From positions 1 to 64,000 of the IMG/VR virus record IMGVR_UViG_3300033073_001248: a stretch of 64,000 nt of DNA, one strand, 5' to 3'. The notes beneath the pieces are model-generated. The model searched no databases and was not told the DNA's origin. It saw only the letters and a list, made by a program, of their open reading frames with translations. Below are positions 5,925 to 24,237 of the stretch, piece by piece (position 1 is the first letter of the stretch; each line of letters opens with the position of its first letter). Made by a program: the position numbers and the translations under genes. Source of the stretch: a virus (lineage: Duplodnaviria > Caudoviricetes).

Positions 5925-5953
5925 TTGACAACAAAGACTAAATAACTTACAAT
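5925..5953 (+). promoter_or_regulatory. sigma70-type promoter driving the leader-peptide transcript
   Basis: TTGACA-N17-TACAAT; predicted start about 5960, 3-4 nt before ATG 5964; TAAATA lies in the spacer. Confidence 0.85.
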
Positions 5954-5963
5954 AGACACTGAT

Positions 5964-6107
5964 ATGAAAAACACGATTCATTGTTCATCCGTTAAACACA
6001 TAGCCCAACTAGGCGGCTTGATGCCCACCTATTGGAGTGCGTTTAGTCAGATTAATAATGATCGCACACCAGAGGTAACCGGGGTCCAGGAGGATCTTGT
6101 AGCGTAA
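5964..6107 (+). CDS. putative attenuator leader peptide (47 aa, all 20 amino acids)
   Basis: MKNTIHCSSVKHIAQLGGLMPTYWSAFSQINNDRTPEVTGVQEDLVA; its 3' end overlaps the 5' arm of an antiterminator. Confidence 0.65.
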   Translation: MKNTIHCSSVKHIAQLGGLMPTYWSAFSQINNDRTPEVTGVQEDLVA

Positions 6108-6139
6108 AAACAACACTACAAAGAATCTAGGACCCCAGG
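6079..6139 (+). promoter_or_regulatory. putative antiterminator hairpin
   Basis: GGGGTCC(6081-87) pairs with GGACCCC(6130-36); inner TTGTAG/CTACAA helix has the leader stop codon in its loop. Confidence 0.7.
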
Positions 6140-6166
6140 CTTAAACTCCCTGGGGTTTTTTGTTTT
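6131..6166 (+). terminator. intrinsic terminator (attenuator), mutually exclusive with the antiterminator
   Basis: ACCCCAGG(6132-39)/CCTGGGGT(6149-56) followed by TTTTTTGTTTT. Confidence 0.85.
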
Positions 6167-6179
6167 AGTAAAAGGAATT

Positions 6180-6341
6180 ATGAAACAGATCAACTTGAAA
6201 GAAAAAGCCAGACAAGTTCGTTGGACTACTGAGCATACACTAACCGACAGTCAGTTTAGAGATATTCTGACAAAAAAGTTAGCTAGAGCCGAGCAGTTCA
6301 AAAAACTTAACAAGCTAGTTCCACTAAAATTGAAATCATAA
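6180..6341 (+). CDS. small basic hypothetical protein (53 aa), first gene after the attenuator
   Basis: AAGGA SD; MKQINLKEKARQVRWTTEHTLTDSQFRDILTKKLARAEQFKKLNKLVPLKLKS. Confidence 0.6.
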   Translation: MKQINLKEKARQVRWTTEHTLTDSQFRDILTKKLARAEQFKKLNKLVPLKLKS

Positions 6342-6344
6342 TTT

Positions 6345-6491
6345 CAGCGTGACAAGGCAACGCGAGCCGGCACACAACGCTATATAAACTGTGACAAATG
6401 GGCGGACAGTTGGATGAAATGCTGGCGGTAACAGCAGAGTACAAATAACTGGGTGGGGTATAACCCCATCATATCCTCTCGTTTGAGAGGG
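6345..6491 (+). ncRNA. candidate structured ncRNA of unknown family
   Basis: GC-rich relative to flanks; AGCGT/ACGCT, CAGTT/AACTG, TGCTG/CAGCA, TGGGG/CCCCA and TCCTCTC/GAGAGGG helices. Confidence 0.5.
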
Positions 6492-6592
6492 TATTCTAAA
6501 ACACAGGGGATGAATAAACCGGCCGGCAGATTGATGAACTGTTGTGGCGGCTCCATTGATCGGTGCGAACAATACCCTTGTGTTTTAGAATA
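6492..6592 (+). repeat. carrier-stem element 1 (18-bp inverted repeat enclosing a structured insert)
   Basis: TATTCTAAAACACAGGGG ... CCCTTGTGTTTTAGAATA. Confidence 0.8.
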
Positions 6593-6595
6593 TTG

Positions 6596-6624
6596 TTGAC
6601 AAAGCCTGTATAGGCATATATAAT
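6596..6624 (+). promoter_or_regulatory. sigma70-type promoter for tRNA-Asn
   Basis: TTGACA-N17-TATAAT; near-palindrome GCCTGTATAGGC in the spacer. Confidence 0.9.
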
Positions 6625-6633
6625 AGAAGTTAT

Positions 6634-6709
6634 TCCGGGTGAGCAATCTAGGTGAAGGCGGCGGACTGTTAATCCGTGAAGCCTGGTTCGAATCCAGGAC
6701 CCGGAGCCA
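6634..6709 (+). tRNA. tRNA-Asn (GTT)
   Basis: TCCGGGT/ACCCGGA stem, CT-GTT-AA loop, GCCA end. Confidence 0.93.
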
Positions 6710-7680: not shown

Positions 7681-8592
7681 ATGAAAATTAATATATTAGA
7701 CAACGGTTGGACAGTAGAATTAACTGATATCAATTTAGCCAAGGCAACAAATGAAGAGTTGTATGAAATTGCTAAGTTAGTAGCAACTAATACTCTTGTG
7801 TTTGCTCGTAATCAAAAGTTTACTCCAGACGATGAAGTAAGGATTACTAAAACAATTGGTTTAATTGAAGATTTTAACCCTCATGCAGGACTACCTCCAG
7901 AGGACGGTCCCGGTATAAGTCCGCATCGTCGAACAGTGCCTCCTGAATCTAGACTAGCAGATAGAATTTTACCTGACAGCAATAATAAAATATTGCGAGT
8001 GACTGGAGAGCTAAACGAAAATAATGTTCCGGGTTTGTTTGGTCATAAATCTACATTAGATTGGCATGCGAATAGACCTTGGGATCCAAATAGATTGCCG
8101 GTAGTGTGGTTGTATGCAGAAAGAGGCAGCGTTGGCAGTGTAACCAGCTTTGCCAACGGAGTCTTGGCTTATCAAGACATGGATCAAGAGTTTAAGAATT
8201 TCATTAAAGACAAAACTACTATAAACGGCCATATTTTTAACAGTTACACTGAAGAAAATTACGGTTGGGGCAGGACAACAATTAATTATAACTATAAGGC
8301 TCCTGTTGTTTACACAAATAAACTAGGCGTTACAGGATTAAACTTTAGTTACTACCATATTCATCATTTTACAGATATGGCAATTAAAGATAGCGAAGAT
8401 TTAAAAAATCGAATTCATGAATGGTACACGCAACCTAAATACATTTATGATCATCATTGGCAGGACGGTGATGTTTTGCTTGCAGATCAATATTTGGGTA
8501 TTCATAAAAGATGGGCATTTGAAAATATGGAACAAAGAGTACTTCATAGAATTACTACCAGTTACGATAATTGTCCATGGATGAAACAATAA
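7681..8592 (+). CDS. TauD/TfdA-family 2OG-Fe(II) dioxygenase
   Basis: GLFGH...LDWHAN; C-terminal HHWQDGDVLLADQ..GIHKR...RVLHR. Confidence 0.8.
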   Translation: MKINILDNGWTVELTDINLAKATNEELYEIAKLVATNTLVFARNQKFTPDDEVRITKTIGLIEDFNPHAGLPPEDGPGISPHRRTVPPESRLADRILPDSNNKILRVTGELNENNVPGLFGHKSTLDWHANRPWDPNRLPVVWLYAERGSVGSVTSFANGVLAYQDMDQEFKNFIKDKTTINGHIFNSYTEENYGWGRTTINYNYKAPVVYTNKLGVTGLNFSYYHIHHFTDMAIKDSEDLKNRIHEWYTQPKYIYDHHWQDGDVLLADQYLGIHKRWAFENMEQRVLHRITTSYDNCPWMKQ

Positions 8593-11425: not shown

Positions 11426-12949
11426 ATGCAATACGAATTGAAAAAACTTTTTATAGGCAACAACACAACTGATACTGATTTAAAGGTGTCAATACAATCA
11501 GACTTGTTACAAACTAAAAATCATGGATTAATTTCAGATTCAAACTTTATACCTGATAAGAATGGATTTTATCACACATCAGTTACTGATTTGTCAATTG
11601 GCGAAATAATTAAAATTTCTAAATATTTTGATGAAATTGAAATGTTAGATCAACCACGGGATGAATGGACTCACCAAAAATCTTTGTTGTCAACATTTAA
11701 GCTAATGTGTGAACTTGAAAAAATAGGCCGCAATACAAAATTTAGAACTAATAAAAATATTATTGGGTTTGGTGAATTTGAAGATTTTTTAAATCAAAAT
11801 AAAAGTTTTTGCATTTATCCTTGGATTAATTTTGTAATGGAAAATAGTAAAAATTTACAACTGTGTGCAAGATCTGGACTTGTAGTAACACAAGTAGATA
11901 AACTCCAAGATTGGGTTAATGACAAACATTTTAACACAATAAGAAATAAAATGTTAGCGGGCCAGTCAATGGGACATGCTTGCCAAGTTTGCTATAACTA
12001 TGAAGCAATTGGTGCAGAAAGTTATAGACAGTATGATACGCGAGAGTGGTTAAATCAATTAGAAATTAAAAATTTAAGTGATTTAAAAAAAATTGAAAAT
12101 CCATATTATTACGAAATAAGGTTATCTAATAAATGTAATGCTATGTGTAGAGGTTGTCGCCCGTCCTACAGTCATCTAATAGAAAAAGAAGCTAGAAAAT
12201 TTAATATTGTACATGACAAAGGAAATTTTAAACCTGCTTATCCTAGTATTAACAATATAAATGTATCTACATTAACAAACAAACACCGAGTTTATTTGAC
12301 TGGTGGCGAACCAACTATAATGTCAGAAGTATTAAAATTTATGGAAAATTGTATTGATCAAAATAAAACTGATTTTGAGCTTACAATGAGTACTAACGGT
12401 GAAAAGTTTAGTGCTAAATTCCTAAAATTGTCTGAATCCTTTTCTAATATGAATTTTAGCTTTAGTTTAGATGGCTACGGCAAAATTAATGATTATTGGC
12501 GTTGGGGAACAAATTGGGATAACATAGTAAAAAACATGAAGTTATGCCAACGAATGGGGCATTCTGTCCAAATTAACACTGTTCCGGGAATTTATAATGT
12601 TACAAATTTACATTTGTTATATGAATTTTTAGATAAAGAATTCCCACTTACTACAGTGTATCTGCAATTAAATTATTTAGAAAAATTTAATACATTTAAT
12701 CATCCAAATAGAAAATTAGTTGTAGAAAGTATGGAAAAATGTAAACAAACAAAAGTATATCATTCGGACGGAAAAAGTAATAAAACTGTAATTGATTCAA
12801 TATACGATTATTATATAAAGAATCCAACCCCTGATATTTCACTACTTAAACAATTTTTTGATTTTAACGATCAACTTGATCGTGCAAGAAATTCTAAGTT
12901 GGGTGATTATATACCAGAATTAGAAGCTTGCAGACAATATATTTTGTAG
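11426..12949 (+). CDS. radical SAM protein with twitch/SPASM-like Cys-rich segment
   Basis: CNAMCRGC (CxxxCxxC), LTGGEP, STNG, FSLDG; upstream CIYPW...C...CxxC. Confidence 0.88.
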   Translation: MQYELKKLFIGNNTTDTDLKVSIQSDLLQTKNHGLISDSNFIPDKNGFYHTSVTDLSIGEIIKISKYFDEIEMLDQPRDEWTHQKSLLSTFKLMCELEKIGRNTKFRTNKNIIGFGEFEDFLNQNKSFCIYPWINFVMENSKNLQLCARSGLVVTQVDKLQDWVNDKHFNTIRNKMLAGQSMGHACQVCYNYEAIGAESYRQYDTREWLNQLEIKNLSDLKKIENPYYYEIRLSNKCNAMCRGCRPSYSHLIEKEARKFNIVHDKGNFKPAYPSINNINVSTLTNKHRVYLTGGEPTIMSEVLKFMENCIDQNKTDFELTMSTNGEKFSAKFLKLSESFSNMNFSFSLDGYGKINDYWRWGTNWDNIVKNMKLCQRMGHSVQINTVPGIYNVTNLHLLYEFLDKEFPLTTVYLQLNYLEKFNTFNHPNRKLVVESMEKCKQTKVYHSDGKSNKTVIDSIYDYYIKNPTPDISLLKQFFDFNDQLDRARNSKLGDYIPELEACRQYIL

Positions 12950-14918: not shown

Positions 14919-15809
14919 TTAGGGCAGTTTATTGTCCTGTTAGGCGGCTTGCCGTTTAACGAAGAATAAGTGCAGTGATGCACCCAAAGGAGGTAAGCCT
15001 ACGCAACTCCGCTGGCAACAGTTCGTGTAAACAAGCCTGCTCACTACCGCGAGGTAGCGTTCACTGAAAAAACCGGTGGATGTAACAGCAAAGCTGATGT
15101 AGTGGAAAGAACGGTGATCGACTAGCCCGCAAGGGAACTAGGGTCAGCGGAAAGTAACAGGTGGTGCTGACTTCACTACAAAACCAATCAGTTAGTTGGT
15201 ATGAGAAAGGGTAGTGTTAGGATCCGAGGTGTCGCAACCAAGGGTTCTAGCGCAATGTTAATGGTCAGTGGCACCGTCGTGAGACAGTGACACAGGTCGT
15301 GAAACATTACTGAGTAGACCGCGAGTCAAAAGGTATTTGGTGAGTTGTATACTGTATGCCAAAAGCATATGGAGCAACTGAGGCAGCTCATCAAGGTAGG
15401 TTGCAACGTAGATCAATTGGTAGATCGTCTGTCTTCTAAACAGGATGTTGCGGGTTCAAATCCCGCCGTAATAAAAATGCAAAGACTGCCTCGGTTATCG
15501 GTGAAAAGCATCTAATGCTTGACACGCAAGTGAATCAAGTCCGCGGAGGCTCGCAAGGCTGAAGTGGTTTGTACTGGAAGTTTCGTAAGGTGTTAGCGCA
15601 CTTGAATGGCTCGCAAGGTCAACGGAGAATAAGGTACAGAGTAGCTGATAACGACTGGCCTACTGCCTGGCCATAAAAACGGCGATGCTGGTAACAGACT
15701 AGGTTACATAGTGATATGGACTTAGTGGATGTCGAGAGAAGCTGTGCTCGCAAGGTGCAGTATAATGCTCGAGGTGTTACTGGCTAAAGTGTAATCTCAG
15801 CTTTAGCAC
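14919..15809 (+). ncRNA. GOLLD-like large ornate RNA
   Basis: About 890 nt with no ORF in the track; own promoter; dense hairpins with many CGCAAG loops; GGTGGTGCTG, TGAGTAG, AAAGACTGCCTC and 3' TAATCTCAGC recalled from GOLLD; next to tRNAs. Confidence 0.75.
15402..15474 (+). tRNA. tRNA-Arg(TCT)-like domain embedded in the GOLLD-like RNA
   Basis: Intact D (GATC/GATC), anticodon (CT-TCT-AA) and T (GCGGG-TTCAAAT-CCCGC) arms; acceptor stem has 2 mismatches and no CCA. Confidence 0.75.
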
Positions 15810-15889: not shown

Positions 15890-16264
15890 ATGAAAATCAC
15901 AGAAGATCAATTTAGGTTTGAGTGGTTTTCCGGTACAGGTAAAGGTGGGCAACATCGCAACAAACACCAAAACTGTTGCCGTTGCATACATGAACCAACT
16001 GGAATTACTGCTAACGGCACTGCCAGTCGTAGTCGCGAAGATAATAAACTAGCGGCATACAATACTTGCAGAGCTAGAGTGGCTGCACACTTTCACAAAG
16101 ACAAAGAGCGTGGCCTTGCAGGTACAGAACGAATTCGTACATATCATGAACCCGACAACAGAGTTGTTGATCACGCCAGTGGCTTGACTGACACTTACAC
16201 TAATGTCGTAGTAAAAGGTGATATAGAGGATATGATCACTGCTCGCGCACGAGCAGTTAGATAA
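15890..16264 (+). CDS. minimal class-I release-factor-like peptidyl-tRNA hydrolase (GGQ domain; ArfB/PrfH-like)
   Basis: SGTGKGGQHRNK..C.RCIHEPTGI; C-terminal ERIRTYHEPDNRVVDH resembles the RF1/RF2 C-terminus; AGGAG SD. Confidence 0.85.
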   Translation: MKITEDQFRFEWFSGTGKGGQHRNKHQNCCRCIHEPTGITANGTASRSREDNKLAAYNTCRARVAAHFHKDKERGLAGTERIRTYHEPDNRVVDHASGLTDTYTNVVVKGDIEDMITARARAVR

Positions 16265-19405: not shown

Positions 19406-19519
19406 GAGCAGACCCATTAAACTCGCAAGAGACGACACTCTGCTTCCGCGGCGCACGAAACATGGGATGGGCTGTGCGTCCGGGGTTGGTAGTAATCCTG
19501 TCACCTAGAAAACTACCTT
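19406..19519 (+). ncRNA. candidate pseudoknotted leader RNA / sRNA upstream of a radical SAM gene
   Basis: Follows TAAATA (19396-19401); GAGCAGA/TCTGCTT, CCCAT/ATGGG, GCGCAC/GTGCGT, CTC-GCAA-GAG and GGTAGT/ACTACC pairings. Confidence 0.5.
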
Positions 19520-19530
19520 ATACCTTTTTT

Positions 19531-20988
19531 ATGTTTTCCACAGATTATAAAGATTTAGTTATACTATCAGGCGCTAATAACGATCCATTTTTCTATGCTT
19601 TTACAAGTCAAGAATATAAGGATTTGTCAATCGTTCCTACTATCCCGCATAGGTTAATTGGACCTTACAAAGTTGGTCATCGTGCTAGATTAGCTGGATA
19701 TTCATGTCAGGTAGTAGATTTTTTTAATTACATTCCAGAAGAGCAGCTACAACAAATTTTAGATAGATTTGTAGGACCTAATACTATTTTAGGAATAAGT
19801 GTTACACACTTATTTTTTAGCGATAACATTACAAATGATCCAGTTGTTCAAAAATTATTAAGAACAGCAATGTATGTAAGAAAAAAACACGGTAATAAAA
19901 TTTTAGTAGGGGGATATAATTCTCCTAAATGGAAAAACTTTTTTAACGCAGAATTTGTTTTAGAAGGTAAAACAGAAAATAGTGTAATTAATTTTTTAAA
20001 TTCAAATTTTAATCACGGAATTAACAAAGCTGTAGTTCCATCGTGGGATATTACTTCGTGTGATTTTAAATGGCATATAGATGATCGCATTGTGCCTCAA
20101 GAAACATTGCCGTTAGAAACTTGCAGAGGATGCATATACAAATGTAGATTTTGTAGATTTGAAGGCATTGGCAAAAAACGCGGAACCTATGTGAGAGATA
20201 TGTCACTTATAAAAGACGAATTAGTAGAAGCTTATGAAAAGTTTAATGTTACTAATTATCAGCTTTTAGATGATACTTTTAACGATGACATAGAAAAAAT
20301 TAAAGACTGGCATAAAATGGCTTCAAACTTGCCGTTCAAGTTAAAATATGCTGCTCATATAAGAGGTGACCTAGTTGAAAAATTTTCAGATTCTGCTCAT
20401 TTGTTAGCAGAATCAGGTCTTTATGGTTGTCATATAGGAGTAGAAACCCTACATCCTGTGGCAGCAAAGGCTATTGGAAAAGTATGGTCGGCTAAAAGAG
20501 CTAGAGATTACTTGCCCAGTCTTAAAGAAAATTCTTGGTCCGATGTTAACATAAGTGTAAATGCTATGGTAGGCTTACCAGGAGAAGACTTTCGAAGTGT
20601 TCATAGTATGTTCCGCTGGATTGTAGAACATAAATTTTCAACTGTGTTTTACCCTTTGCATTTAATAAACGCCAAAGAGACTGAATCTGAAACATTTAGC
20701 GAGTTTGATTTAGAAGCCGAAAAATACGGCTATAAATTCGATAAAGATTTAGAATGGGTAAGCCCTATTACAAATAGTTTAGAAGCCAGGAAAATAGCTA
20801 AAATTTTAAACTCTAAATCGGCCCATTTAACTCCAGCGGATTCTTGGGACAGTAATCTATTTGAAGGCCTGGGTATTCAACAGAAGACAGTTTTGGAAAT
20901 GTCTAAAAAAGAGTTGTTTGACAGCGCAGACCTAAGAATCGGTATTACCAAATTTATAAATAAATATATTAACAGTTTTCAAAGTTAA
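19531..20988 (+). CDS. B12-binding-domain type radical SAM protein
   Basis: ETCRGCIYKCRFC, DDTF, GVET; N-terminal flavodoxin-like GISVT...ILVGG. Confidence 0.82.
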   Translation: MFSTDYKDLVILSGANNDPFFYAFTSQEYKDLSIVPTIPHRLIGPYKVGHRARLAGYSCQVVDFFNYIPEEQLQQILDRFVGPNTILGISVTHLFFSDNITNDPVVQKLLRTAMYVRKKHGNKILVGGYNSPKWKNFFNAEFVLEGKTENSVINFLNSNFNHGINKAVVPSWDITSCDFKWHIDDRIVPQETLPLETCRGCIYKCRFCRFEGIGKKRGTYVRDMSLIKDELVEAYEKFNVTNYQLLDDTFNDDIEKIKDWHKMASNLPFKLKYAAHIRGDLVEKFSDSAHLLAESGLYGCHIGVETLHPVAAKAIGKVWSAKRARDYLPSLKENSWSDVNISVNAMVGLPGEDFRSVHSMFRWIVEHKFSTVFYPLHLINAKETESETFSEFDLEAEKYGYKFDKDLEWVSPITNSLEARKIAKILNSKSAHLTPADSWDSNLFEGLGIQQKTVLEMSKKELFDSADLRIGITKFINKYINSFQS

Positions 20989-21338: not shown

Positions 21339-22160
21339 ATGAATCTTATAAAATTTTTAGATCCAGACATCATATTTTCCAAACACTCAGATAAAAAAAT
21401 CAAACTAATAATATTAACTGCTTATGCCTTAAGTATCTTTTGGTTTTTTACTTCTGGATTACCTTGGTATTTGATGCTGATTTGTTTTTATTCATCAGTT
21501 TTAATCTTAAGATTGGGTGCTGAAATTGGCTATCATAGATATTTTGCACACAGGAGTTTTGAAACAACAAAACTTAAAAAATATCTATTATTGTTTTTAG
21601 GTTCTATTTTGGGCGTAGGTAGTTGCTTATCATGGACTGCTGTACACAGGACTCATCATAGATTTAGCGATTTGGATAATGATCCACACAGTCCCAAAAA
21701 TATAGGAATATTAAGAGTGTGGTTTACATTTTGGGACAATAATTGGCATGTTGATCCTGCTATAATAAAAGATATGTTAAGAGATCCTTATCAAATGTTT
21801 ATACACAAAAACTATTTCAAACTTTTAATAGCATGGATAACCTTATTGGTTTCTGGGTCTATGTTAACAGAATCTATGGTACCCATAATGATAGGATTTA
21901 TTTTACCTTGTGCTACAACCAGTTTTTTCAGTGGAATTACAAATAGTCTAGGACACACCGTTGGGTATAGGAATTTTGAAACAAACGACTCTAGTACAAA
22001 TCATCTTTTTATCCGTTGGTTATTTGTAATAGTGGGCCTACACAACAACCATCATTATAAACCAACAGCATGGAATTTTAATTTATTAAATCGGTGGTGG
22101 GAATTTGATCTTGACGCAGTGATTATAAAACACTTTTTTATAAAAAAATTATATGTATGA
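21339..22160 (+). CDS. membrane fatty-acid (delta-9-like) desaturase
   Basis: His boxes YHRYFAH, HRTHH and HNNHH; hydrophobic helices. Confidence 0.9.
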   Translation: MNLIKFLDPDIIFSKHSDKKIKLIILTAYALSIFWFFTSGLPWYLMLICFYSSVLILRLGAEIGYHRYFAHRSFETTKLKKYLLLFLGSILGVGSCLSWTAVHRTHHRFSDLDNDPHSPKNIGILRVWFTFWDNNWHVDPAIIKDMLRDPYQMFIHKNYFKLLIAWITLLVSGSMLTESMVPIMIGFILPCATTSFFSGITNSLGHTVGYRNFETNDSSTNHLFIRWLFVIVGLHNNHHYKPTAWNFNLLNRWWEFDLDAVIIKHFFIKKLYV

Positions 22161-24237
22161 TATTGTATTTTGCTCGGTTCCGCCCTTGGCCATAGATCGA
22201 GTTTATTCTGCCCCTGCACTGCTTAAGGGATTAGTGCAAAGCAAAGGATACAAATCAAAAACTTATGATTTTTCAATTGAACTTTATAAACAGTGCAACA
22301 AGGATCCTAAAGTTTACACTAACCTATTAGAATATTTTTGGTCAACTGCAAAAATTTTAAGTGATACTGAAAAAATAATTATTGAAAAATGGTATCAATC
22401 AGTTATCCACTTGTTGAAGAATTGCCCTACTAGATTTATAGGATTAAGTGTATTCAGTGGGTGGACTCAAAAAGCTATTTTGGAAATTTTATTGAAAGCA
22501 CACGAAGAAGGTTTTGCAAATAAAATTGTTTTGGGCGGTCACGGACTTACAACCACAGTACACTATACTGCTCAAAAATTACTGCCTAACAAAAATATAA
22601 ATGACAAAATCTATACTTTTGAACAAGCATTACGATCGAAACAACTCTGTGATCATATAATTATAGGCGATGGCGAGTCTGGAATATTAGATCTACTAAG
22701 AAATAATTCAGTAAAGAATACACAGTACACAGACGAGCAATTTGATTATTTTCTACCTAACTATGATGATTACGAACTAGATTGTTATACATGGGAAAAC
22801 GATGAAACAATAATTGATGTAATTGGCAGTAAAGGGTGTGTCAGAGATTGTGATATGTGCGACATAAGATCAAAATTTGGCAATTATAGATTTAAAGACG
22901 GAGAAAGAATAGCAGACGAATTAATTGAACTTAATAGTACATATGGATTTAGAAAATTTAGATTTGTAGACAGTTTGACCAATGGCAGTTTATTGCATTT
23001 TGAAAAGTTTATCAAAAGATTAGCCGAATATAATCAGCAAACAAATAAAAACATAGTATGGTCGGGCGAATACATTTGCAGAGACTTTACTAATAGTAAA
23101 AAAGACATTGATGCTTATTATAGTATGTTAGCCGCCAGCGGCGCCCAAGGACTTACCATAGGAGCAGAATCAGGCAGTAATGCAGTTCTATCAGCTATAA
23201 ACAAACAAACATCAGTCGAAGCTTTATTTTTTGAACTTGAGTATTTTAGAAAATACAATATTACCAGTGTTTTGTTATTATTTACAGGCCATTGGTCTGA
23301 AACTGAAACGGATTTTATTGACCATTGTCAATTGCTGGTTGATTTAGTGCCCTATAGTTTGTCGTCTACAGTGATAGGAGTAATGCTAGGCACCACTTTT
23401 GGATTAATACATGGTTCTCCTAGTTTCGGTAATTCAGTAATTGAACGGCACAATGATAAATTTGTAAGACTATGGTTTAATCCAAATAACCCGACTAACA
23501 CACTTAAAACACGACTTAAGAGAAGGATTATAGTAAACAAACTTGCAACTGCTTTAAATTTGCCTATAGTAAATGAATTTATGTATTTGAAACCTGAATT
23601 TGATTTTTTAAGCGACAACTTAAATGACATTAATGAATTTTTTATAAACAAAGGTGGACAGCAAAGCGATATAGATATAACAAATTTTGTCACAACTTTT
23701 TTAAACAATCTAAATAATATTCAGTTCGAAGTTGAAATCGAAGTCTCCACCGTTAACACAGATCCCAGTGTTCATATATCGATAAACAATGATGTACTAG
23801 TTAACACTGTACTCACAGACGGTGTTTATAGTTTTAGTAAAACTTTAAACGCTGAAAATTCTAATTTGGTAAAAATATCAATGGGCAATAAAAATATAAA
23901 TGATACTATTGTTGAAAATAATATAATTATTAAAGACAAGTCTGTTAAATTTGAAAAATTGTTGATTAATAATGTAGATATTTTAAATCCAACAATTTAT
24001 TACAATATAATATCAATGTTTGAGGGTGCTACAAGATTAAATGAATTATCTATGGGTCTATTTAAAAACGATCAAACTCTTGAAATTAAATTCCCTAAAA
24101 ATTTTACAGTTTGGATTAGTAAGAACTATAATTCAAATAAATCTTGGCAAAATATTACCAATAACGCACTGACAGACTCTAGTATACAAGAACTTGTTGC
24201 AAACCTAGAACTTCTTGTTGATCAAATTAAAATTTAA
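22153..24237 (+). CDS. B12-binding-domain type radical SAM protein with C-terminal beta domain
   Basis: GSKGCVRDCDMC, FVDS, GAESGS; IVLGG in the N-terminal domain. Confidence 0.82.
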   Translation: MYDIVFCSVPPLAIDRVYSAPALLKGLVQSKGYKSKTYDFSIELYKQCNKDPKVYTNLLEYFWSTAKILSDTEKIIIEKWYQSVIHLLKNCPTRFIGLSVFSGWTQKAILEILLKAHEEGFANKIVLGGHGLTTTVHYTAQKLLPNKNINDKIYTFEQALRSKQLCDHIIIGDGESGILDLLRNNSVKNTQYTDEQFDYFLPNYDDYELDCYTWENDETIIDVIGSKGCVRDCDMCDIRSKFGNYRFKDGERIADELIELNSTYGFRKFRFVDSLTNGSLLHFEKFIKRLAEYNQQTNKNIVWSGEYICRDFTNSKKDIDAYYSMLAASGAQGLTIGAESGSNAVLSAINKQTSVEALFFELEYFRKYNITSVLLLFTGHWSETETDFIDHCQLLVDLVPYSLSSTVIGVMLGTTFGLIHGSPSFGNSVIERHNDKFVRLWFNPNNPTNTLKTRLKRRIIVNKLATALNLPIVNEFMYLKPEFDFLSDNLNDINEFFINKGGQQSDIDITNFVTTFLNNLNNIQFEVEIEVSTVNTDPSVHISINNDVLVNTVLTDGVYSFSKTLNAENSNLVKISMGNKNINDTIVENNIIIKDKSVKFEKLLINNVDILNPTIYYNIISMFEGATRLNELSMGLFKNDQTLEIKFPKNFTVWISKNYNSNKSWQNITNNALTDSSIQELVANLELLVDQIKI

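Follow-up and report, generated by a model that had tools for sequence, protein, structure and literature searches.

A candidate leader-peptide attenuator encoding all 20 amino acids in the tRNA island of a phage

A stretch of 64,000 nt (the window), which forms the first 64 kb of an 85.7-kb viral contig, from a giant uncultured phage, in IMG/VR (record IMGVR_UViG_3300033073_001248; 16% complete by CheckV), contains an island of tRNA genes and, within it, an element of ~240 nt in which a short open reading frame (ORF) overlaps a pair of mutually exclusive RNA structures. We give a probability of roughly 0.55 to the reading that this element is a ribosome-mediated (leader-peptide) transcription attenuator which reports slow decoding of almost any amino acid. 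The reading is built on the anatomy of the element, on its conservation in relatives, on covariation in its helices and on selection for both an open frame and a full set of amino acids in that frame. A preliminary description of the window had proposed an attenuator of this kind, and the comparative evidence, drawn from sequence, supports its interpretation. The features of the element and of the unit that follows it are all on the + strand.

Conservation of the leader ORF

The leader ORF (5964–6107) comprises 47 codons followed by TAA and has no Shine-Dalgarno (SD) sequence. Homologues were collected from viral and metagenome contigs as 30 distinct leader sequences (that of the window and those of 29 relatives), given here by L numbers where they must be told apart. 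The first 23 were obtained by protein search with ORF53 (the small protein encoded downstream), by protein look-ups and with DNA patterns taken from the hairpin and the promoter. A further seven came from a pattern in the middle of the ORF that draws on neither the promoter nor the N-terminus nor the hairpin, and six of these seven are clearly more divergent. Five unrelated chance loci that emerged from scanning metagenomes with a promoter 21-mer were excluded (L032, L034, L043, L047 and L048). Searches of 50,697 phage records by megablast, blastn and tblastn with the leader, the divergent leader L039 and ORF53 found no homologue of the module, the sole tblastn matches being at chance level (E ~1), and no cultured phage carries it.

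The frame is open in all 30 homologues. It is 45–51 codons long and its stop codon always falls in the apex of the hairpin described below. When the 225 inferred substitutions were re-placed randomly among the variable columns, all 23 frames of the first set stayed open in 0.22% of trials. The open frame, for which the preliminary description had proposed a test in related phages, is conserved with P ~0.002 under this substitution null. The corresponding probabilities for the separate regions were 0.07, 0.34 and 0.30. Simulations rooted on real leaves were used in place of an ancestral reconstruction rooted at the midpoint, in which indel columns had left the frame of the root broken.

Nucleotide changes are spread evenly over the three codon positions (75/82/85), which indicates that translation and composition are selected and not the peptide sequence. 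Synonymous changes make up 36 of 161 codon changes (about 22%), and by these counts the leader peptide itself is not under ordinary purifying selection. An invariant GGGUCC is read in three different frames, as G-V, G-S or G-P depending on the clade. The peptide motifs FMPTYWSA and NDRTPE are conserved, and hardly any synonymous change is seen within YW.A and DRTPE. The conserved ORF and its two motifs would suit an ordinary small-protein gene with a functional 47-residue product and a leaky terminator behind it. Against such a gene, changes show no third-position bias and about 22% of them are synonymous; the C-terminal quarter is in different frames in different clades, the Cys and His residues are not fixed in position, and the product has no Pfam, PHROG or NCBIfam match. 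We consider a small-protein gene highly improbable.

Completeness of the amino acid set

The ORF in the window encodes all 20 amino acids, with the set complete at residue 37, and its first 39 codons comprise 32 different codons, exactly as the preliminary description stated. A single case of this kind is weak evidence since 1.7% of random 47-residue segments from the phage's own proteins also hold all 20 amino acids, and the strength of the observation comes from its conservation. All 30 homologous peptides contain the full set, including all seven of the out-of-sample sequences found with the mid-ORF pattern.

The chance of such persistence was assessed by simulations started from a real leaf and run along the tree. 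When the replacement residues were drawn at random, every leaf remained complete in 0 of 20,000 trials when changes were placed in the observed columns and in 0.2% of trials when they were placed in random variable columns. A null of single-nucleotide mutations avoiding stop codons gave all-leaf completeness at frequencies of 1e-4 and 7.5e-4, and keeping events within their own region, with four rootings, gave 0 to 8e-4. Overall, P is <=0.002 across the nulls and mostly <0.001, the extremes being 0.002 and <1/20,000. The persistent all-20 content anticipated in homologues is thus borne out.

Completeness by residue 37 is a different matter. As a conserved trait it fails, since only 10 of the first 23 sequences have it, owing to Val. 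If Val is set aside, the first 36–37 codons specify all 19 other amino acids in 22 of 23 sequences (P <=1e-4), and 1.9% of random 37-residue segments contain at least 19 kinds of amino acid. Residues present in a single copy move between clades: Cys is found at position 7, 8, 10, 11, 12 or 18, His at 3, 6, 7, 8, 10, 11 or 12 and Phe at 19 or 27. A Val at position 21 is peculiar to L036, which has lost its C-terminal Val residues.

Mutually exclusive RNA structures

The 3′ part of the ORF is built into an antiterminator hairpin of 61 nt (6079–6139; -25.3 kcal/mol), whose 5′ arm is formed by codons 39–47 and whose apex holds the leader stop codon (6105–6107). In the window its three tiers are a base of CCGGGGUCC/GGACCCC-A-GG, a middle tier of GGAG/CUCU and an apical stem of CUUGUAG/CUACAAAG. 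The segment after the linker ACACCAGAG folds as the same three-tier hairpin in every clade, with energies of -20 to -30 kcal/mol. Hardly any variation is seen in its base, GGGGUCC/GGACCCC. The middle tier is GGAG/CUCU, GGAG/CUCC or GAAG/CUUC, and the apical stems are unrelated between clades (UGUAG/CUACA, GGUUAAGU/ACUUAAU, GUGUAA/UUACAC, GGUUAC/GUAACU and GGAU.AGAUUC/GAGUCU.AUCC). On the plain sequence alignment the hairpin pairing is satisfied in 82% of cells against 24–53% in slid controls, no shuffle attains the observed fraction of paired cells, and eight pairs have changed on both sides. The variable inner hairpin alone gives folding z values of -2.9 to -6.4.

The hairpin is followed by an intrinsic terminator (6131–6166; -15.4 kcal/mol), with a stem of 6131–6139 paired to 6149–6157, a 9-nt loop and the U-tract TTTTTTGTTTT. 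An initial pattern scan, which allowed loops of <=8 nt, missed it. Across clades the terminator folds with -13 to -16 kcal/mol and shows compensatory changes from CCCCAGG/CCUGGGG to CCCCUGG/CCAGGGG and to CCCUAGG/CCUAGGG (A-U to U-A and C-G to U-A). Covariation therefore exists in both helices, in the two inner tiers of the hairpin and in the terminator stem, and the long hairpin and overlapping terminator of the preliminary description are both real. In all clades the strand GGACCCCAGG serves the hairpin as its 3′ arm and the terminator as its 5′ arm, so the two structures cannot coexist, and the hairpin is the more stable by 7–14 kcal/mol.

Such a stable arrangement might simply be the 3′ end of a product. 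The terminated RNA of ~200 nt could itself be the functional molecule, as a small RNA (sRNA) or dual-function RNA, with read-through as a leak; the full transcript folds unusually well (z -4.9), and the leader is conserved at ~80% nucleotide identity against 31–40% amino acid identity for ORF53. A plain 3′ end, however, does not need the 5′ arm of its terminator locked in a stronger rival hairpin in every clade, and the conserved frame, stop position and composition would be left unexplained. We regard this as very unlikely to be the whole account, though a functional sRNA can coexist with attenuation.

Upstream of the hairpin, codons 4–34 form a long irregular hairpin, the rod (5974–6064), with the apical loop UUGAU. 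The same architecture folds in 10 clade representatives with -26 to -43 kcal/mol. The rod does not overlap the antiterminator hairpin (6079–6139) and both form in the free fold. Covariation support for the rod is moderate; RNAalifold offers a different pairing for its inner part and neither version has decisive covariation. The rod may be a pause hairpin for RNA polymerase that synchronises ribosome and polymerase, or it may be a site at which a factor binds.

The second of these possibilities leads to another explanation of the switch, in which the rod and the linker would bind a factor (ORF53, the downstream non-coding RNA, a tRNA or a small molecule) that chooses the fold, the ORF being incidental or secondary. 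The rod, its loops and the linker are nearly invariant, synonymous sites included, the architecture of the rod is conserved, and ORF53 is small, basic and predicted to fold as a helical hairpin. The open frame and the complete amino acid set are both significant, however, and neither would be expected of an untranslated RNA. Furthermore, no segment upstream is complementary to the 5′ arm of the hairpin, a search of 5955–6640 against Rfam gave no match, to a riboswitch, a T-box or any other family, even at E <= 10, and the switch is intact in L051 and L055, which have no ORF53. A switch worked by a factor thus appears quite unlikely, and attenuation by a translating ribosome remains our preferred reading.

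Two further observations concern the hairpin. Its middle tier (6088–6093/6124–6128) sets an SD-like GGAGG against CUCU, CUCC or CUUC and so mimics an SD/anti-SD pairing, with compensatory GAAG/CUUC variants. A start-stop mini-ORF, NTG-TAG after GGAGG, can be read in some clades; it was judged coincidental and rejected, since the N changes together with the base it pairs with and L031, L036 and L039 lack the motif.

Promoter and start of the leader

The strong sigma-70 promoter reported in the preliminary description is present upstream of the ORF as TTGACA-17-TACAAT (5925–5953), with 11 of 12 consensus matches. Its 21-mer TTGACAACAAAGACTAAATAA, spacer included, is identical in the 23 homologues of alignment A2. 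Such identity is to be expected, as it was by searching with this very 21-mer that most of these loci were found. From spacing only, transcription is predicted to start at ~5958–5962, giving a 5′ untranslated region (UTR) of 2–6 nt.

The near-leaderless ORF with no SD sequence was also correctly described for the window, where the leader ATG is 10 nt downstream of the -10 hexamer. As a general trait it does not stand, being confined to one clade. In six divergent relatives the same -10 hexamer is 50–58 nt further upstream and there is a structured 5′ UTR, so a leaderless start is not essential. The 5′ UTR of L051–L053 and L055–L057 (50–58 nt from -10 hexamer to leader ATG) holds a small hairpin, for example GGCAGCAAUGGUGCUGUC. 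Met20, which has a GGAGG-like sequence upstream, was considered as the true start and rejected: the mobile Cys and His residues are upstream of it and its AUG is in the apical hairpin of the rod.

Ribosome position and the proposed switch

In the mechanism that we propose, host RNA polymerase would start at the conserved promoter and a ribosome would translate the 47-codon leader. RNA alone should give read-through because the hairpin is transcribed first and is more stable; by default, then, the hairpin would sequester GGACCCCAGG, the weaker terminator would be blocked and polymerase would continue into ORF53, the non-coding RNA (ncRNA) and then the tRNA array. During transcription of the terminator, a ribosome keeping pace would occupy codons ~36–47, up to and including the apical stop. 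It would keep the hairpin open, the terminator would form and transcription would end at ~6161–6166. Any earlier delay in the frame, whether from slow decoding of any of 19–20 amino acids or from failed initiation, would let the hairpin form first and would give read-through.

Folding with parts of the RNA masked agrees with much of this scheme. When the full-length RNA is left free, its minimum-energy fold contains the hairpin in 9 of 11 clades. The hairpin also survives in 9 of 11 when the RNA is masked as by a ribosome with codon 24 in its A site, and when codon 37 is in the A site the minimum-energy fold is the terminator in all 11. The preliminary description had the ribosome mask the antiterminator arm on reaching the stop codon. 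This part is weaker: at the stop codon the base arm GGGGUCC is ~3 nt behind the footprint, and direct masking occurs only with the A site at ~codons 36–44.

Several points count against the attenuator reading. With a ribosome at the stop codon thermodynamic masking still permits the base stem in 6 of 11 clades, and steric exclusion of that stem is an assumption of ours. The free full-length minimum-energy fold of L050 and L036 already contains the terminator. In the L004, L019 and L051 clades every Val falls within the 5′ arm of the hairpin or beyond it, the same is true of Asp in L003, and Glu is always two codons ahead of the arm; because of these positions, stalls at such codons should not give read-through. 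Initiation is a further difficulty. The leader start is near-leaderless and without an SD sequence in a phage whose other genes, such as ORF53, use one, the relatives with a 5′ UTR show only weak purine-rich stretches before the leader ATG, and codons 4–34 are inside a stable hairpin of ~-30 kcal/mol. Synonymous sites are near-invariant over much of the ORF, which implies strong constraints at the RNA level that could serve another function. Finally, translation of the ORF, the direction of the switch and its trigger are what we infer from these data.

The exceptions for Val and Asp mean either that sensing would be near-universal and not strictly universal or that the geometry is incompletely understood. 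The suggestion that a stall at any codon is sensed hence survives in part: the full set is kept in every homologue, but it cannot be strict for all 20 amino acids.

The same exceptions are relevant to a broader alternative of identical geometry, namely a sensor of translation or of its coupling to transcription that monitors how ribosomes perform overall (initiation, elongation rate, toxins or antibiotics that act on the ribosome). The full amino acid set would then be a by-product of maximal mixing in the sequence. In favour of such a sensor, the residues Val, Asp (in L003) and Glu are partly outside the stall-sensing zone, and the BmrB-bmrCD leader ORF is described as responding to general translation inhibition (PMC4191407). 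No particular composition would be needed, yet the set is complete in 30 of 30 homologues, with relocating single-copy residues and P <=0.002. This makes a purely general sensor unlikely in our view.

Genes downstream of the switch

ORF53 (6180–6341) is the first gene that read-through would reach. It encodes a basic two-helix protein and has its own SD sequence, AAGGA (6172–6176). It was found in all 14 relatives with enough downstream sequence and a usable reference. An AlphaFold model is a helical hairpin with a predicted local distance difference test score (pLDDT) of 83. Searches of Pfam, PHROG, NCBIfam and, by profile, the PDB gave no match for ORF53, and Foldseek and the ESM Atlas returned nothing usable.

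Directly after ORF53 is a structured ncRNA of 150 nt (6342–6491), with compensatory changes in 17 of 31 predicted pairs among 12 relatives; Rfam gave no match to it even at E <= 10. Where ORF53 is absent, as in L051 and L055, the ncRNA directly follows the leader terminator, which identifies the ncRNA as the constant cargo.

The next promoter (6596–6624), with 12 of 12 consensus matches, precedes tRNA-Asn by 9 nt. The unit that depends strictly on the attenuator ends there and on this layout consists of ORF53 plus the ncRNA. A promoter with 10–12 of 12 matches precedes tRNA-Asn in seven of the eight loci checked (window, L023, L027, L031, L036, L039 and L010), at a distance of 9–21 nt in five loci and ~210 nt in L023 and L027. 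The preliminary description had listed internal promoters at 6596, 7388, 10766, 13757 and 14884, all of which are present, and had cautioned that the element may tune rather than gate most tRNAs. The conserved promoter before tRNA-Asn bears this caution out, since with a promoter of its own the tRNA array would be tuned, and not gated, by the attenuator. When ribosomes decode slowly, the leader probably switches on the small RNA and the small protein encoded behind it and contributes to transcription of the tRNAs.

The tRNA island and its phage

ARAGORN finds 31 tRNAs in the island, covering all 20 amino acids, with two upstream of the leader and 29 downstream. One of the 29 is inside a GOLLD RNA, and the earlier count of 28 of 30 free-standing tRNAs downstream fits these figures. 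Synteny is constant among relatives, with tRNA-Met and tRNA-Leu(UAA) followed by the module and then by tRNA-Asn, Leu(UAG), Gly, Met, Val, Pro, Ala and others. The RecA-like recombinase and UvsW-like helicase of the contig are 50–70% identical to their counterparts in jumbo phages of Proteobacteria, among them Atu_ph07, Phosso, GAP32, CBB, PA5oct and Vibrio phage 2.275.O, and as judged by these two proteins such phages are the nearest cultured relatives.

Other features of the island deserve mention. The GOLLD RNA (15337–15803; RF02032, 215.6 bits, E 3e-60) has an embedded tRNA-Arg(UCU) at 15401–15475. A protein of 124 residues (15890–16264) consists of an RF-1 (GGQ) domain alone (PF00472, E 2e-14) and may be a ribosome-rescue factor resembling ArfB or PrfH. 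Three large radical-SAM proteins (11426–12949, 19462–20988 and 22153–24237) and a TauD-family dioxygenase (7681–8592) are encoded in or near the island and may be enzymes of tRNA or nucleotide modification. The tRNA arrays of relatives contain tRNA-like genes that ARAGORN reports with irregular anticodon loops, at L039:1177–1275 (-) and L023:1349–1437 (-), one with the four-base anticodon 'ctcc' and the other with the two-base 'ta'.

Discussion

The purpose of the tRNA sets in large phages is still debated and their regulation has been little studied. If selection does keep every amino acid represented in the leader frame, that frame would give the phage a small internal gauge of its decoding capacity. 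Recent work is described as tying phage tRNAs to escape from host defences that cleave tRNA (PMC10264068, PMC11464382, PMC11555353). The element might be a universal phage sensor of aminoacyl-tRNA supply. Whichever tRNA was depleted or cleaved, by host anticodon nucleases, other tRNA-targeting defences or starvation, the ribosome would be delayed somewhere on the 20-amino-acid frame and the switch would flip, and the answer would be the ncRNA and ORF53, as countermeasure or regulator, with extra transcription of the tRNA array. We offer this extension tentatively and consider it rather doubtful. Were it true, leader-peptide attenuation would extend from the sensing of one amino acid to near-universal sensing, and from metabolism to the conflict between virus and host, and the covarying 150-nt RNA and the 53-residue protein would be marked as a likely response to decoding stress.

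No published account of a phage leader of this kind came to our notice. The structural features of a leader-peptide attenuator are all to be found in the element, namely an open promoter-proximal ORF, an intrinsic terminator, an antiterminator that shares a strand with it and an ORF that overlaps the switch.

The classical model of attenuation in the leaders of amino acid operons (trpL, hisL, leuL, thrL and ilv) is the subject of a review (PMC1183508). The phage leader resembles these in its short promoter-proximal ORF, a hairpin of the pause type, an antiterminator that shares a strand of the terminator and the proposed control by ribosome position. The classical leaders contain runs of one to three regulatory codons, whereas the phage leader has none; in the window its ORF uses each amino acid 1–5 times (Ser up to 8 times in the family). 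In the classical leaders the 1:2 hairpin overlaps the antiterminator, which brings about superattenuation; the phage rod has no such overlap, and an untranslated phage leader should therefore read through. The cargo of the classical leaders is biosynthetic and that of the phage leader is not.

The polycysteine short-ORF attenuators of mycobacteria are described as leaderless short ORFs that form the first cistron and work as attenuators responsive to an amino acid (bioRxiv 10.1101/834739). As described there, they sense one amino acid through runs of Cys, and the leaderless start of the phage ORF differs in being specific to a clade, with relatives that have a 5′ UTR of 50–58 nt.

The closest tested analogue, by comparison of layout, is the upstream ORF (uORF) attenuator of whiB7 (wblC) in mycobacteria. 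There a mixed-composition uORF stands before RNA that can fold either as an antiterminator or as a terminator, and a stall in the uORF gives read-through (PMC10274678). In a screen, starvation for 18 of 20 amino acids was sensed, with the composition of the uORF deciding which; the uORF of M. smegmatis encodes 19 of 20 amino acids, and loss of its start codon raises basal expression (PMC10274678). The uORF differs in composition between species, is enriched in Ala and, in M. tuberculosis, lacks several amino acids (PMC10274678). No sequence relationship was detected between the phage leader and the whiB7 attenuator. The two are alike in joining a mixed-composition uORF to an antiterminator/terminator switch. 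The whiB7 system is, however, cellular and actinobacterial and controls a transcription factor, whereas the present element is borne by a phage whose nearest cultured relatives are jumbo phages of Proteobacteria, is set in a tRNA island and has as its cargo not a WhiB7/WblC regulator but an ncRNA and a small protein of no known family. The composition of the phage leader is apparently under selection, and where the whiB7 uORF is incomplete in M. tuberculosis the full set of 20 residues appears here to be actively maintained.

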